Assembly: GCF_048403405.1 (NCBI RefSeq)
Contig: NZ_CP183129.1
Reading direction: 5' to 3' (one strand)
Source: Escherichia coli
GTDB taxonomy: Bacteria; Pseudomonadota; Gammaproteobacteria; Enterobacterales; Enterobacteriaceae
Length of the DNA: 64,000 nt
Part shown: positions 5,927 to 46,649 of the stretch, piece after piece
How the letters are laid out: each line of letters begins with the position of its first letter
Position numbering within the stretch: position 1 is the first letter of the stretch
Program-made: the position numbers and the translations under genes
The notes under the pieces: generated by a model
What the model was told of the DNA's origin: nothing
Databases searched by the model: none
The model's input: the letters and a program-made list of their open reading frames with translations, nothing else

Positions 5927-8173
5927 ATGCTCACTCGCCTGCGCGAAATAGTCGAAAAGGTAGCCAGCGCACCACGCCTGAATGAGGCGTTAAATATTCT
6001 GGTTACCGACATCTGTCTTGCGATGGATACCGAGGTCTGTTCGGTTTACCTTGCCGATCATGATCGACGTTGTTACTACCTGATGGCGACCCGGGGGCTG
6101 AAAAAACCACGCGGTCGCACTGTAACGCTCGCGTTTGATGAAGGGATCGTCGGCCTGGTTGGCAGGCTGGCGGAACCGATAAACCTTGCAGATGCGCAAA
6201 AGCACCCCAGCTTCAAATACATCCCCTCCGTAAAAGAAGAACGTTTCCGCGCGTTTTTAGGCGTACCAATTATTCAACGTCGCCAGTTGCTTGGTGTACT
6301 GGTGGTACAGCAACGAGAGTTGCGCCAGTATGACGAAAGTGAAGAATCCTTCCTGGTGACGCTTGCCACCCAGATGGCTGCGATTCTTTCTCAGTCGCAG
6401 TTGACTGCCTTGTTTGGGCAATATCGCCAGACGCGAATCCGTGCATTACCGGCAGCGCCTGGTGTAGCGATTGCCGAAGGCTGGCAGGATGCCACGTTAC
6501 CTTTAATGGAACAGGTGTATCAGGCATCAACGCTGGATCCAGCTCTGGAACGCGAACGACTGACCGGGGCGCTGGAAGAAGCGGCAAACGAGTTTCGCCG
6601 CTACAGCAAACGCTTTGCCGCCGGTGCACAAAAAGAAACGGCGGCTATTTTCGATCTTTACTCACACCTGCTTTCGGATACCCGGCTGCGGCGCGAATTG
6701 TTTGCCGAGGTTGATAAAGGCTCGGTGGCAGAGTGGGCGGTAAAAACGGTCATTGAAAAATTTGCCGAACAGTTTGCCGCGCTAAGCGATAACTATCTCA
6801 AAGAGCGGGCTGGCGATTTACGTGCGCTGGGTCAGCGATTGCTGTTTCATCTTGATGACGCTAATCAAGGGCCGAACGCCTGGCCGGAACGTTTCATTCT
6901 GGTGGCAGATGAACTGTCAGCGACAACGCTTGCAGAGCTGCCCCAGGATCGCTTAGTCGGTGTTGTCGTGCGAGATGGCGCAGCCAACTCCCATGCTGCG
7001 ATCATGGTACGTGCGCTGGGGATCCCTACCGTAATGGGCGCGGATATTCAGCCTTCGGTGCTGCATCGTCGGACGTTGATCGTCGATGGTTATCGCGGTG
7101 AATTGCTGGTCGATCCGGAGCCGGTACTGCTGCAAGAATATCAGCGGCTAATTAGTGAAGAGATTGAGCTTAGCCGTCTGGCGGAAGATGACGTCAATTT
7201 ACCCGCCCAGTTAAAAAGCGGCGAGCGCATTAAAGTCATGCTCAATGCCGGTTTAAGCCCGGAACATGAAGAAAAACTGGGCAGCCGTATTGATGGCATC
7301 GGTCTTTATCGCACTGAAATCCCATTCATGCTGCAAAGTGGTTTTCCGTCGGAAGAAGAACAGGTGGCGCAGTATCAGGGGATGCTGCAAATGTTCAATG
7401 ATAAACCCGTCACCTTGCGTACGCTGGATGTCGGAGCAGATAAGCAGCTGCCTTACATGCCGATCAGCGAAGAGAATCCATGCCTGGGTTGGCGTGGGAT
7501 TCGCATTACGCTCGATCAGCCGGAGATCTTCTTGATCCAGGTGCGGGCGATGCTGCGTGCTAATGCCGCTACGGGCAACCTGAATATTCTGTTGCCGATG
7601 GTCACCAGCCTCGATGAAGTTGACGAAGCACGCCGCCTGATTGAACGTGCAGGACGTGAAGTCGAGGAGATGATCGGTTACGAAATTCCCAAACCACGTA
7701 TCGGCATCATGCTGGAAGTGCCGTCAATGGTATTTATGCTGCCGCATCTGGCAAAGCGGGTCGATTTTATCTCTGTTGGCACCAACGATCTGACTCAATA
7801 CATCCTGGCCGTTGATCGCAATAATACCCGGGTGGCGAACATTTATGACAGTCTTCATCCTGCAATGTTACGAGCTCTGGCGATGATCGCCCGGGAAGCG
7901 GAAATACATGGAATCGATCTCCGTTTGTGCGGTGAAATGGCGGGCGATCCCATGTGCGTGGCAATCCTCATTGGGCTTGGGTATCGCCATCTGTCTATGA
8001 ACGGACGTTCTGTAGCGCGCGTAAAATACCTGCTGCGGCGCATTGATTTTGCCGAAGCAGAAAATCTTGCGCAGCGTAGTCTGGAAGCGCAACTGGCGAC
8101 CGAAGTTCGCCATCAGGTTGCAGCCTTTATGGAGCGTCGCGGCATGGGCGGGCTGATTCGCGGAGGGTTATAG
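5927..8173 (+). CDS. ptsP: phosphoenolpyruvate-protein phosphotransferase EI-Ntr (GAF domain + PEP-utilising enzyme)
   Basis: 748-aa ORF; N-terminal GAF-like region followed by Enzyme I domains; synteny with rppH. Confidence 0.9.
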   Translation: MLTRLREIVEKVASAPRLNEALNILVTDICLAMDTEVCSVYLADHDRRCYYLMATRGLKKPRGRTVTLAFDEGIVGLVGRLAEPINLADAQKHPSFKYIPSVKEERFRAFLGVPIIQRRQLLGVLVVQQRELRQYDESEESFLVTLATQMAAILSQSQLTALFGQYRQTRIRALPAAPGVAIAEGWQDATLPLMEQVYQASTLDPALERERLTGALEEAANEFRRYSKRFAAGAQKETAAIFDLYSHLLSDTRLRRELFAEVDKGSVAEWAVKTVIEKFAEQFAALSDNYLKERAGDLRALGQRLLFHLDDANQGPNAWPERFILVADELSATTLAELPQDRLVGVVVRDGAANSHAAIMVRALGIPTVMGADIQPSVLHRRTLIVDGYRGELLVDPEPVLLQEYQRLISEEIELSRLAEDDVNLPAQLKSGERIKVMLNAGLSPEHEEKLGSRIDGIGLYRTEIPFMLQSGFPSEEEQVAQYQGMLQMFNDKPVTLRTLDVGADKQLPYMPISEENPCLGWRGIRITLDQPEIFLIQVRAMLRANAATGNLNILLPMVTSLDEVDEARRLIERAGREVEEMIGYEIPKPRIGIMLEVPSMVFMLPHLAKRVDFISVGTNDLTQYILAVDRNNTRVANIYDSLHPAMLRALAMIAREAEIHGIDLRLCGEMAGDPMCVAILIGLGYRHLSMNGRSVARVKYLLRRIDFAEAENLAQRSLEAQLATEVRHQVAAFMERRGMGGLIRGGL

Positions 8174-32674: not shown

Positions 32675-33772
32675 ATGAAAGGACGTTGGGTAAAGTACCT
32701 TCTTATGGGCACGGTTGTGGCAATGCTTGCCGCCTGCTCTTCCAAACCAACCGATCGCGGACAGCAATATAAAGACGGGAAATTTACCCAGCCTTTCTCT
32801 CTGGTGAACCAGCCAGATGCCGTTGGCGCGCCGATTAACGCCGGTGATTTTGCCGAGCAAATTAATCATATTCGTAATTCGTCACCGCGTCTGTATGGCA
32901 ACCAGAGTAATGTTTATAACGCGGTGCAAGAGTGGCTGCGCGCAGGCGGTGATACCCGCAATATGCGCCAGTTCGGCATTGATGCCTGGCAGATGGAAGG
33001 TGCCGACAACTATGGTAACGTGCAGTTTACAGGCTATTACACGCCGGTAATTCAGGCGCGCCATACCCGCCAGGGCGAGTTCCAGTATCCGATTTACCGT
33101 ATGCCGCCAAAACGTGGTCGTTTGCCGTCTCGTGCGGAGATCTACGCGGGGGCATTGAGCGATAAATACATCCTCGCTTACAGCAACTCCCTGATGGATA
33201 ACTTCATTATGGATGTGCAGGGTAGTGGGTATATCGACTTTGGTGATGGCAGTCCGCTTAACTTTTTCAGCTATGCAGGGAAAAACGGTCATGCCTATCG
33301 CAGCATTGGTAAGGTGCTGATCGACCGTGGCGAAGTGAAAAAAGAAGATATGTCGATGCAGGCGATTCGTCACTGGGGCGAAACACACAGTGAAGCCGAG
33401 GTTCGCGAGCTGCTGGAACAGAACCCGTCTTTCGTCTTCTTTAAACCGCAATCTTTTGCACCGGTGAAAGGGGCAAGTGCGGTGCCGCTGGTTGGCCGTG
33501 CTTCTGTTGCCTCCGATCGTTCAATTATTCCGCCAGGTACTACCTTGCTGGCAGAAGTGCCGCTGCTGGATAATAACGGCAAATTTAACGGTCAGTACGA
33601 ATTGCGTCTGATGGTGGCGCTGGATGTCGGTGGCGCAATCAAAGGCCAACACTTCGATATCTATCAAGGGATCGGGCCGGAAGCCGGGCACCGCGCAGGT
33701 TGGTACAACCACTATGGACGTGTCTGGGTGCTGAAAACGGCTCCGGGCGCAGGTAACGTCTTTAGCGGCTGA
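32675..33772 (+). CDS. mltA: membrane-bound lytic murein transglycosylase A (lipoprotein)
   Basis: ATG at 32675 gives MKGRWVKYLLMGTVVAMLAACSS (lipobox), 365 aa; the ORF-track start 32393 is an artefact reading through the tRNA genes. Confidence 0.9.
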   Translation: MKGRWVKYLLMGTVVAMLAACSSKPTDRGQQYKDGKFTQPFSLVNQPDAVGAPINAGDFAEQINHIRNSSPRLYGNQSNVYNAVQEWLRAGGDTRNMRQFGIDAWQMEGADNYGNVQFTGYYTPVIQARHTRQGEFQYPIYRMPPKRGRLPSRAEIYAGALSDKYILAYSNSLMDNFIMDVQGSGYIDFGDGSPLNFFSYAGKNGHAYRSIGKVLIDRGEVKKEDMSMQAIRHWGETHSEAEVRELLEQNPSFVFFKPQSFAPVKGASAVPLVGRASVASDRSIIPPGTTLLAEVPLLDNNGKFNGQYELRLMVALDVGGAIKGQHFDIYQGIGPEAGHRAGWYNHYGRVWVLKTAPGAGNVFSG

Positions 33773-39590: not shown

Positions 39591-40322
39591 TCAGGCTGTT
39601 ACCAAAGAAGTTGCAACCTGGCGCTCATCAGAAATAATGTGCGTTACCTCATCCAGATGCCCGATGCGGGCTTCCCCTGAACGATTAAATTTACTTTTAT
39701 CAATCAATAACAACGATTGCGCGGCGCGTTTTAATAGCATTGATTTGTAATCAGCGTTGATGGCATTGGAGTCCCACAGTGCGCCGCTGCTATCGATCCC
39801 TTCACAAGAAAAAATAAACAGATCGATTTCCAGCGATTTAAGTTGGGAAATCAGCGAGGGATTGACGTAACAGCCATATTTGCGCTCAAGTGTGCCGCCG
39901 GAACTGATTAGTTGAATGCGTTCGCGTTTACCGAGTTCATGGCAAATCGGATGGCTATTGGTGAAGACCTGGATGTTGATGTCAGGCAACTGGCGTGCCA
40001 GATACCAGCAGGTTGAACTGGCGTCTAAGGCTATCACCATCCCTTCTTCAATCCACGCGAGCGCCTCGCGCGCGATATCTGCTTTATGCGCATAATGGCT
40101 TTTCAGCCGGATGTGAAAGGGATCGCCACTGTCTTGATTTTGACGGTGGATATATTTAGCGCGCCCATGATTGCGCAGAATTTTACCCTGCGTCTGTAAT
40201 TCATTGAGATCGCGACGAATGGTTTCTTTACTGACCTTTAGCTGTTCAGAAAGAGCTTCCGTGGTCAGGCTGGTATGGTTCAGCAGCAGGTCGACTATCG
40301 CTTGCTGGCGTGCCGCTTTCAT
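39591..40322 (-). CDS. fucR: DeoR-family transcriptional activator of the fucose regulon
   Basis: Helix-turn-helix and DeoR sugar-binding domain; likely start MKAARQQAIV at 40322 (ORF-track 40331). Confidence 0.9.
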   Translation of the reverse strand: MKAARQQAIVDLLLNHTSLTTEALSEQLKVSKETIRRDLNELQTQGKILRNHGRAKYIHRQNQDSGDPFHIRLKSHYAHKADIAREALAWIEEGMVIALDASSTCWYLARQLPDINIQVFTNSHPICHELGKRERIQLISSGGTLERKYGCYVNPSLISQLKSLEIDLFIFSCEGIDSSGALWDSNAINADYKSMLLKRAAQSLLLIDKSKFNRSGEARIGHLDEVTHIISDERQVATSLVTA

Positions 40323-40379
40323 ATTTTTCACCCCATCATTCGATAACCGCCCGCGTCATGCGGGCGTACCGGTATGAGA

Positions 40380-44138: not shown

Positions 44139-45455
44139 TCAGTTAGTTGCCGTTTGAGAACGGAAACGGGCAAAGATAAAGATGACTGCGAAGCAGAGTG
44201 CCGGGATCAGTTCGGCAGTGGGGATGTTGCCCGCTGCGTCACTGACAAAACCCATGACCGGAGTGACAATACCGCCGCCAATAATGGTCATAACGATGAA
44301 GGACGAACCGTATTTGGTGTCCTGGCCGAGATTCTTAATGCCCAGCGAGAAGATTGTTGGGTACTGAATCGACATAAAGGCACTGCATAATGTCAGGGCT
44401 ATTAAGCCCACATGACCGCCAGCGAAGGCTGAGATCAGGCACAGTGCCATAGCGATTAATGCGTAGGCTGCCAGGACTTTGTGTGGTGCGAAGCGACTGA
44501 TGAGCCAGGTACCGGTGAAACGACCAATAAAGAAGCACACCATGGTTCCGGTTAAATAGTTAGCGGCAAAGCCTGCGGTCATACCTGGAATTTCTTCTAC
44601 AGCGTAGCGAATCAAATAGCTCCAGCAGGCCGTTTGCGCGCCGACATAGCAGAATTGCGCTAATACCGCCCAGCGCCAGTGACGAATACGCGCCAGACGA
44701 GAAAGCGATGCGGAGAACGATCCTTGTTTGGCGTCACTGTGATTATCACTCTGCAATGCCGGGAATTTCGTCAGCATGATCAGCAGGGCGACCAGTAACA
44801 CGATAGCCACGATGATCATATAAGGTGTCTGTACCGATAATACCAGGCTGTGTTTATACGCACTCAATTGCTCTGGAGACATTTTATCGAGAACGTCTTG
44901 CGATTGATGTGGCACGTTAGACAAAATAAGACTTTGTCCAAAGACAACCGCGATAATTGCGCCAAACGAGTTAAATGTTTGCGCAAGATTTAAGCGGAAG
45001 TGACCACTGCTTTCCGGCCCTAATACCGTAACAAAAGGGTTTGCGGCAGTTTCCAGACAACCTAATCCGGCTGCAATAATAAATAGGCCAACTAAAAATA
45101 AGGTGTAGTTCATTATTTCTGCAGCGGGCCAGAATAATGCAGCGCCCAAGGCATATAAAAATAATCCGGTAATAATCCCTGCTTTATAACTGAGTTTTTT
45201 CATCAATATCCCAGCAGGGATTGGGATAATGAAATAACCAAAGTAAAAGGCCGATTGGATCAGGCCAGCCTGGAAATTTGTCAGCGTAAAAGCCTGCTGG
45301 AATTGAGGTAATAAAATGTCGTTAAGGTTATTGGCTACCGCCCAAAGAAAAAACAGTGAGCACAGCAGCGCGAATGGAATAATGTAACTTCTGCTTTGCC
45401 CTGCATCTTTATCTACCGCACGGTAACTCTGCGTTTGTATTGATGTGTTTCCCAT
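44139..45455 (-). CDS. fucP: L-fucose:H+ symporter (MFS)
   Basis: 438-aa polytopic ORF, first gene of the fucPIKUR transcript. Confidence 0.95.
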   Translation of the reverse strand: MGNTSIQTQSYRAVDKDAGQSRSYIIPFALLCSLFFLWAVANNLNDILLPQFQQAFTLTNFQAGLIQSAFYFGYFIIPIPAGILMKKLSYKAGIITGLFLYALGAALFWPAAEIMNYTLFLVGLFIIAAGLGCLETAANPFVTVLGPESSGHFRLNLAQTFNSFGAIIAVVFGQSLILSNVPHQSQDVLDKMSPEQLSAYKHSLVLSVQTPYMIIVAIVLLVALLIMLTKFPALQSDNHSDAKQGSFSASLSRLARIRHWRWAVLAQFCYVGAQTACWSYLIRYAVEEIPGMTAGFAANYLTGTMVCFFIGRFTGTWLISRFAPHKVLAAYALIAMALCLISAFAGGHVGLIALTLCSAFMSIQYPTIFSLGIKNLGQDTKYGSSFIVMTIIGGGIVTPVMGFVSDAAGNIPTAELIPALCFAVIFIFARFRSQTATN

Positions 45456-45643
45456 AGCATCCTCTTAGGTTCAGAAGCTTAAGCACGTAATCGGTTATGT
45501 TTTCAAAAGTGCAAAACCAGCGAGTTCGGGCTTCATATCAGTGAATATTTGCCTGTCAGAAATGAACTCATGGATTCATTTTCAAATAAAAAACGCTCTG
45601 TAATATGACGGCGGTCACACTTATTAGCTGGGAGGTGACTTTA

Positions 45644-45659
45644 TGTGACTACCATCACT
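45644..45659. promoter_or_regulatory. candidate CRP site (tgtga-N6-tcact) in the divergent fucP/fucA control region
   Basis: Read directly; 9/10 match to the TGTGA-N6-TCACA consensus; position in the fuc regulatory region. Confidence 0.35.
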
Positions 45660-46001
45660 TTAATAATCGAAATTTCATGCCCGTTTCAGAAAATAAATCA
45701 TAAAAAACACAAACCCGATGACCGTATTAATTGTTTGTGCCGAAAACGGGCATTTCTGGCGAGGGGGAATGGAAAAATGACCGTTTTGATAAATATTTTT
45801 AAGAGCGGTCATTTTTAATAGGGTTATAAAAAGAGAACTTGCGGTTATTTACTATGATTAGTTGAACCAGGTCACAAAATATAAGCTTGTGAATTTCTTT
45901 CTGGTTAATCAGGAAGAAGATGGTGGGTAATTAAACGGCTAATTCAATAGTGTGAAAGGAACAACATTATTGCCCTGTTTTGAATCAGAGAGAGGTAGCT
46001 A

Positions 46002-46649
46002 ATGGAACGAAATAAACTTGCTCGTCAGATTATTGACACTTGCCTGGAAATGACCCGCCTGGGACTGAACCAGGGGACAGCGGGTAACGTCAGTGTACGT
46101 TATCAGGATGGGATGCTGATTACGCCTACAGGTATTCCATATGAAAAACTGACGGAGTCGCATATTGTCTTTATTGATGGCAACGGTAAACATGAGGAAG
46201 GAAAGCTCCCCTCAAGCGAATGGCGTTTCCATATGGCGGCCTATCAAAGCAGACCGGATGCCAACGCGGTTGTTCACAATCATGCCGTTCATTGCACGGC
46301 AGTTTCCATTCTTAACCGACCAATCCCCGCTATTCACTACATGATTGCGGCGGCTGGCGGTAATTCTATTCCTTGCGCGCCTTATGCGACCTTTGGAACA
46401 CGTGAACTTTCTGAACATGTTGCGCTGGCTCTCAAAAATCGTAAGGCAACTTTGTTACAACATCATGGGCTTATCGCTTGTGAGGTGAATCTGGAAAAAG
46501 CGTTATGGCTGGCGCATGAAGTTGAAGTGCTGGCGCAACTTTACCTGACGACCCTAGCGATTACGGACCCGGTGCCAGTGCTGAGCGATGAAGAGATTGC
46601 CGTAGTGCTGGAGAAATTCAAAACCTACGGGTTACGGATTGAAGAGTAA
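46002..46649 (+). CDS. fucA: L-fuculose-1-phosphate aldolase (class II)
   Basis: 215-aa ORF divergent from fucP. Confidence 0.95.
   Translation: MERNKLARQIIDTCLEMTRLGLNQGTAGNVSVRYQDGMLITPTGIPYEKLTESHIVFIDGNGKHEEGKLPSSEWRFHMAAYQSRPDANAVVHNHAVHCTAVSILNRPIPAIHYMIAAAGGNSIPCAPYATFGTRELSEHVALALKNRKATLLQHHGLIACEVNLEKALWLAHEVEVLAQLYLTTLAITDPVPVLSDEEIAVVLEKFKTYGLRIEE

Follow-up and report, generated by a model that had tools for sequence, protein, structure and literature searches.

Several regulators of the DeoR family act through arrays of sites: DeoR uses three palindromic operators together with looping, GlpR binds tandem operators, and AgaR has multiple sites. The fuc regulon is a classic model of divergent operon control and of IS5-mediated adaptive activation, which gives growth on propanediol, and the use of fucose matters for gut colonisation by Escherichia coli and Salmonella.

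The fucAO regulatory region of E. coli K-12 has been dissected by Zhang et al. (2024; Int J Mol Sci 25:3946; PMC11011485). Two FucR operators, OFucR2 (CCGAAAACGGTCATT) and OFucR3 (TTAAGAGCGGTCATT), were named there from the FucR motif G C C A A A A CGG T CA T T, which that paper cites, as it does OFucR2, from the DAP-seq of Baumgart et al. (2021), and both were mutated: fucose-induced activity of PfucAO fell by about 30% with OFucR2 and more than 50-fold with OFucR3. A truncation, V6, kept about 70% of the induced fucAO activity in a reporter placed at the lac locus and assayed at saturating fucose. In the model proposed, FucR at OFucR3 aids the occupancy of OCrp2 by CRP, which then recruits RNA polymerase.

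The dependence of fucPIK on another CRP site, OCrp1, is credited in later papers to Podolny, Lin and Hochschild (1999). The most recent account (Zhang et al. 2025, NAR 53:gkaf172; PMC11894529) quotes the sequence of a fucP-proximal CRP site, OCrp0, and places the IS5 target between OCrp0 and OCrp1, at -374 to -371 from fucA, where IS5 was found at CTAG in all propanediol-positive K-12 mutants. It also draws four FucR operators, OR0 to OR3, for the region and assigns two to each operon; its text gives no coordinates for the OFucR or OR sites. PMC10046853 contains nothing on binding sites, and the portions of the literature returned by our searches describe no FucR footprint or gel shift on fuc control DNA.

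The fuc control region and its CRP sites

The window, by which we mean the whole 64-kb stretch of DNA analysed, contains the E. coli fuc locus in an orientation reversed relative to that of K-12, with fucR, fucU, fucK, fucI, and fucP on the minus strand and fucA and fucO on the plus strand. The fucP (44139-45455, minus) and fucA (46002-46649, plus) genes border a gap of 546 bp (45456-46001). The fucR gene (39591-40331, minus), annotated in RefSeq as "L-fucose operon activator," encodes a 243-amino-acid product (39591-40322) with an N-terminal HTH_DeoR domain (PF08220, 6.6e-23) and a C-terminal DeoRC sensor domain (PF00455, 1.6e-45). Several E. coli chromosomes are 100% identical to the window across the 546-bp gap, and, of the 5,024 genomes containing this gap, the majority are 95-99% identical to it; K-12 MG1655 differs at 16 positions.

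CRP sites are given here without strand. With at most one mismatch allowed, TGTGAN6TCACA matches the window five times (1.95 expected), and two of these matches, at 45604 and 45644, fall in the fuc region. The second is the string TGTGACTACCATCACT at 45644-45659, which the original prediction had described as CRP-like; it keeps nine of the ten core bases (one mismatch; conservation 0.79). It falls between the IS5 target and the start of the published V4 construct at -339 and, as the sole CRP-like sequence in that interval, it is by position OCrp1 (TGTGActaccaTCACT), the published upstream CRP site of the fucPIK promoter. OCrp0 (TAATATGACGGCGGTCACACTT; 45601-45622), which has one difference from the consensus and a conservation of 0.79, matches the quoted sequence exactly. 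The two sites of fucPIK are thus the same in the window as in the published work, whereas the IS5 tetranucleotide between them differs: at 45628-45631 the window strain and the O157:H7 strain Z1767 read CTGG, and K-12 reads CTAG, so that this insertion hotspot is polymorphic within E. coli. The 70-bp allele of the window at the IS5 target is found exactly in 404 of 5,014 genomes.

On the fucA side, OCrp2 (TTAGTTGAACCAGGTCACAAAA; 45858-45879), which is essential for PfucAO and whose mutation caused a 350-fold loss (PMC11011485), is identical in the window, and OCrp3, validated in the same study, lies at 45948-45969. Mapped onto the window, the PfucAO -10 element AATTAA occupies 45929-45934 on the plus strand and the start C determined by 5'RACE, at -63 from the fucA ATG, is at 45939 (PMC11011485). 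The text of that paper gives the -35 element as "TTGtgA" at -96 to -91. In both K-12 and the window, TTGTGA stands at -115 to -110 (45887-45892 in the window), 36 bp from the -10 element, and the bases at -96 to -91 (45906-45911) read TAATCA; the published -35 assignment and its coordinates are mutually inconsistent.

The inverted repeat and the FucR motif

An inverted repeat with arms 22 bp apart had been described in the fucP–fucA gap and proposed as a site for FucR. Its coordinates proved exact, as did both arms: the left, AAAAATGACCG, is at 45773-45783, and the right, CGGTCATTTTT, at 45806-45816, with a 22-bp gap between them. The two 11-nt arms are perfectly complementary and, in a repeat search, extend with mismatches to a 25-nt, 84% complementary palindrome over 45773-45816 (44 bp), located 123-166 bp upstream of the PfucAO start. 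The proposal that FucR binds here also agrees with the published motif, since the right arm is the core of OFucR3 and the left arm is the same motif on the opposite strand. OFucR3 of K-12 is base-for-base identical to the right arm with its leader, and both arms match the motif gccaaaaCGGtCAtt, with CGG and CA kept. Read as its reverse complement, ATCAAAACGGTCATT, the left arm is nearer to the published FucR motif than either of the named sites; the text of PMC11011485 does not list it among the sites.

When the 546 bp were shuffled 1,000 times with dinucleotide composition preserved, 14 of the shuffles contained a perfect inverted repeat of 11 bp or more whose arms were no more than 60 bp apart; taken alone, this frequency of 1.4% is suggestive but not conclusive against chance. 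It is the point in favour of reading the repeat as an accident of an A/T-rich intergenic region, and a related reading takes it for the -35 element of an old computer-predicted fucAO promoter, PfucAO.hc, which OFucR3 does overlap. PfucAO.hc, however, had no activity (PMC11011485), and no match to the sigma-70 consensus was found in the region; we rejected the promoter element on these two grounds. Conservation of both arms, and of the distance between them, in more than 12 genera excludes chance. We regard this pair of explanations as very improbable.

The core of the motif gives a stronger signal than the repeat. This core, CGG[GT]CAT, occurs five times in the 546 bp, all inside 140 bp, where the rate in the whole window predicts 0.26. 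The paired pattern TGNCCG-N22/23-CGGNCA is present twice in 64 kb, at 45719 and 45778, both in the fucP–fucA region; among 46 orthologous intergenic regions (25 kb in all) it occurs 82 times, and in 215 kb of flanking DNA once, so that its density in fuc intergenic regions is about 700 times that of the flanks.

A position weight matrix (PWM) for FucR was built from boxes of genera other than Escherichia and scanned over both strands of the 64 kb. Because the regular expression that gathered the boxes dictated the core of the matrix, only the flanking positions constitute independent evidence. The four highest-ranking matches are all in the fuc control region, and five boxes can be placed there. 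Box 1, which reads TCTGAAACGGGCATGA on the minus strand (45675-45690; 15.9 bits; conservation 0.88), recurs at an equivalent position in most of the 47 control regions compared below. Box 2 (45716-45731, minus; 13.9 bits, ranked seventh; conservation 0.80) reads ATTAATACGGTCATCG and is the left half of a first inverted pair, whose other half, box 3, is the published OFucR2 (CCGAAAACGGGCATT in the window; 45740-45754, plus; 18.4 bits, ranked second). Box 3 reads CGGGCATT in the window and CGGTCATT in K-12; the single T-to-G change, at 45750, falls on a degenerate position of the core at which the motif permits G. Box 4 is the left arm of the repeat, reading ATCAAAACGGTCATTT on the minus strand (45775-45790). 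At 23.0 bits it ranks first in the 64 kb, it is the best conserved of the five boxes (0.91), and it is invariant across three diverged E. coli alleles. Box 5 is the right arm with its leader, that is, OFucR3 (45799-45813, plus; 17.1 bits, ranked third). The spacer of the repeat (45784-45805), 22 bp long and A/T-rich, contains the A-rich leaders of boxes 4 and 5.

The best PWM matches outside the fuc control region, at 6737-6757 and 33276-33296 (15.5 and 14.9 bits), each consist of one box that lacks an inverted partner 29 bp away, and are probably due to chance.

Conservation and spacing of the boxes across genera

A scan for FucA in one genome per species returned 80 loci, 46 of which have fucP divergently upstream across gaps of 419-665 bp. 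Together with the window these give a set of 47 fucP–fucA regions, ranging from Escherichia to Yersinia and Photorhabdus. The order and orientation of the boxes is "--+-+" in 32 of the 47, found in Escherichia, Salmonella, Citrobacter, Klebsiella, Raoultella, Enterobacter, Kluyvera, Yokenella, Hafnia, Buttiauxella, Rahnella, and Yersinia. Conservation in other fuc regulons had been put forward with the original prediction as a test of the repeat, and both the repeat and its spacing are indeed kept in them.

In the 32 regions, boxes 2 and 3 are 29 bp apart in all but one, boxes 4 and 5 are 29 bp apart in 24 and 30 bp apart in eight (giving a spacer of 22 or 23 bp), and boxes 1 and 2 are separated by 41 or 42 bp in 31. 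The linker between boxes 3 and 4, by comparison, runs from 24 to 52 bp and so varies by up to 28 bp. The array also keeps its distance from the CRP sites on either side: OCrp1 is 34 or 35 bp from box 1 in 40 regions, and box 5 is 56 or 57 bp from OCrp2 in 34, a constancy that agrees with the published model of FucR at OFucR3 assisting CRP at OCrp2. The distance from OCrp2 to the start codon of fucA varies, from 96 to 194 bp.

Sequence conservation follows the boxes. When 20 genera are aligned, each arm has an identity of 0.81 to the window base, and the spacer and the region as a whole both stand at 0.56; the core of box 4 reaches 0.91, and the box 3–box 4 linker, at 0.22, is the least conserved stretch. 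The arms are thus islands of conservation, and the spacer and linker are not. The three diverged E. coli alleles show the same pattern, with differences that concentrate in the linker at 45755-45772 and avoid the 44-bp repeat. Box 5 often has CGGACAT as its core in genera other than Escherichia.

Comparison of the arms also bears on whether the repeat might work through nucleic-acid structure, by extruding a cruciform when the DNA is supercoiled or by forming a hairpin once transcribed. As a single strand it has a folding energy of -10 kcal/mol, with z = -4.8 relative to shuffled sequences, and the region has been described as prone to stress-induced duplex destabilisation (SIDD; PMC5493358). 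A folding energy of this kind, however, comes automatically with any inverted repeat. Both transcription starts that have been mapped lie downstream of the repeat, and DAP-seq gave, independently, a protein-binding motif that each arm matches. At the variable core position the bases of the arms can pair in 14 of the 32 regions, where about 11 are expected by chance, and there are no compensatory changes; arms that share a degenerate motif without co-varying argue for binding by a protein and against a hairpin in DNA or RNA. No Rfam match and no terminator-like site were found for the repeat. On the absence of compensatory changes, of an Rfam match, and of a terminator, we rejected the hairpin or cruciform, which we consider scarcely credible.

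The spacing data bear most directly on a third alternative, that the two arms are independent, neighbouring FucR sites and the repeat is not a unit, with the plus-strand boxes 3 and 5 serving fucAO and the minus-strand boxes 1, 2, and 4 serving fucPIKUR. The boxes do point towards the two promoters, PMC11894529 assigns two operators to each operon, and V6 retains most of the PfucAO induction with box 4 removed. Sites acting independently would have no need to stay a set distance apart, however, and the distance of 29 or 30 bp within a pair is invariant over deep divergence while the spacer sequence drifts and the linker shifts. Some Photorhabdus regions, moreover, retain a single minus/plus pair alone between both operons; other species of the genus have two pairs and a lone box. 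We therefore think independent sites unlikely. That each pair is bound as a unit is the preferred reading, and it is what the fixed internal spacing suggests when set against the drifting spacer and the variable linker.

One further element may belong to the array. At 45702-45713 the window reads AAAAAACACAAA (AAAAcCCACAG in most genera), a conserved sequence exactly 29 bp from box 1, which is the position expected for an inverted partner of that box. At the corresponding place Photorhabdus has a canonical FucR box, TTCGGTCAT. The element may be a degenerate sixth box, left over from an array of three dyads; the portions of the fuc literature examined assign no published site to it.

Two of the database records deserve comment. 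NZ_SZPQ01000009.1 (L031, labelled as the alphaproteobacterium Martelella alba) and JADMXW010000002.1 (L015, labelled Serratia marcescens) encode FucA proteins 89-92% identical to that of E. coli and carry a complete five-box control region of the Enterobacteriaceae type; these fuc loci probably come from contaminated or mislabelled assemblies. In many genomes of Citrobacter, Atlantibacter, Buttiauxella, Enterobacter, and others, there is no divergent fucP within 1.5 kb of a FucA-like gene whose identity is 82-88% (L033-L040, L044-L046, L048, L050, L052-L054, L056-L065, L067-L069, and L072), which places this gene in a second genomic context. In Edwardsiella (L043, L049, and L055) and Serratia sp. 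DD3 (L060), the FucR dyad pattern is still present upstream of the FucA-like gene.

A proposed paired-box operator for FucR

We think it likely that the repeat is the fucA-proximal FucR operator, one of two inverted pairs in an array of five boxes. Such an operator would consist of two boxes of about 15 bp on opposite strands, each with an A-rich leader, the core CGGKCAT, and a T-rich tail; the leaders of boxes 4 and 5 face each other, and their cores begin 29 bp apart. Pairs 2/3 and 4/5, with box 1, form an array that occupies the centre of the divergent fucPIKUR/fucAO control region and is bracketed at fixed distances by OCrp1 on the fucP side and OCrp2 on the fucA side. FucR, a DeoR-type regulator with HTH_DeoR and DeoRC domains that is activated by fuculose-1-phosphate, would bind each pair as an oligomer, either a dimer or a tetramer. 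According to the published work, which establishes what boxes 3 and 5 and the CRP sites do, FucR acting through box 5 is required for the CRP-dependent activation of PfucAO via OCrp2. We infer that FucR also binds box 4, which could stabilise the protein on the pair, link the two pairs, or serve the fucPIK promoter that the box faces.

Two observations complicate this picture. The start of V6, judged from its primer, is at about 45791, so that boxes 3 and 4 are both absent from the construct, and the loss of about 30% that it shows equals the loss caused by the point mutation of box 3 by itself. The V6 result implies that box 4 is dispensable for most fucAO activation in the lac-locus reporter, and that PfucAO does not need the repeat to be intact. 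Box 4 is conserved yet dispensable for most fucAO activation, and its conservation must therefore reflect something else; activation of fucPIKUR, cooperative loading at low inducer concentration, and coupling of the two pairs may each be considered. The second observation concerns geometry: the cores are 28-29 bp apart, or roughly 2.7 turns of the helix, an unusual separation for a simple dimer bound to one face of the DNA.

We are evenly divided on a fuller proposal. It holds that the functional FucR operator is a two-box dyad with its boxes 29-30 bp apart, ancestrally present as three dyads, with the conserved AAAnCCACAG element at the place of box 1's partner, and that box 4 is a real FucR contact, needed either for the activation of fucPIKUR or for a cooperative, inducer-sensitive assembly of oligomers that couples both promoters.

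The CRP site at 45644-45659 is already in the literature, as is the FucR site of the right arm. Judged from sequence comparison, what is added here is modest: the left arm as a strong and deeply conserved candidate FucR box, and a geometry in which FucR boxes form inverted pairs of fixed spacing within an array whose distances to the flanking CRP sites are likewise fixed on either side. This refines a known system and introduces no new kind of element. It does draw attention to one strong candidate site, box 4, and FucR pairs of fixed geometry at fixed distances from CRP offer a testable architecture for the action of a DeoR-type activator with CRP at two promoters.

Compared with the K-12 description, the window has OFucR3 unchanged and OFucR2, our box 3, with the one base change allowed by the motif. 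PMC11011485 treats the two operators as separate 15-mers on one strand and leaves their opposite-strand copies unnamed, whereas here they appear as members of inverted pairs with fixed spacing. Like DeoR, GlpR, and AgaR, FucR combines HTH_DeoR and DeoRC domains, has a sugar-phosphate effector, and has repeated sites spread over more than 100 bp that are likely to be bound by oligomers. Unlike them, it is an activator that binds with its effector present and works together with CRP at both of two divergent promoters, and its half-sites, 29 bp apart, differ from the compact palindrome of 16-20 bp found in the other arrays of the family.
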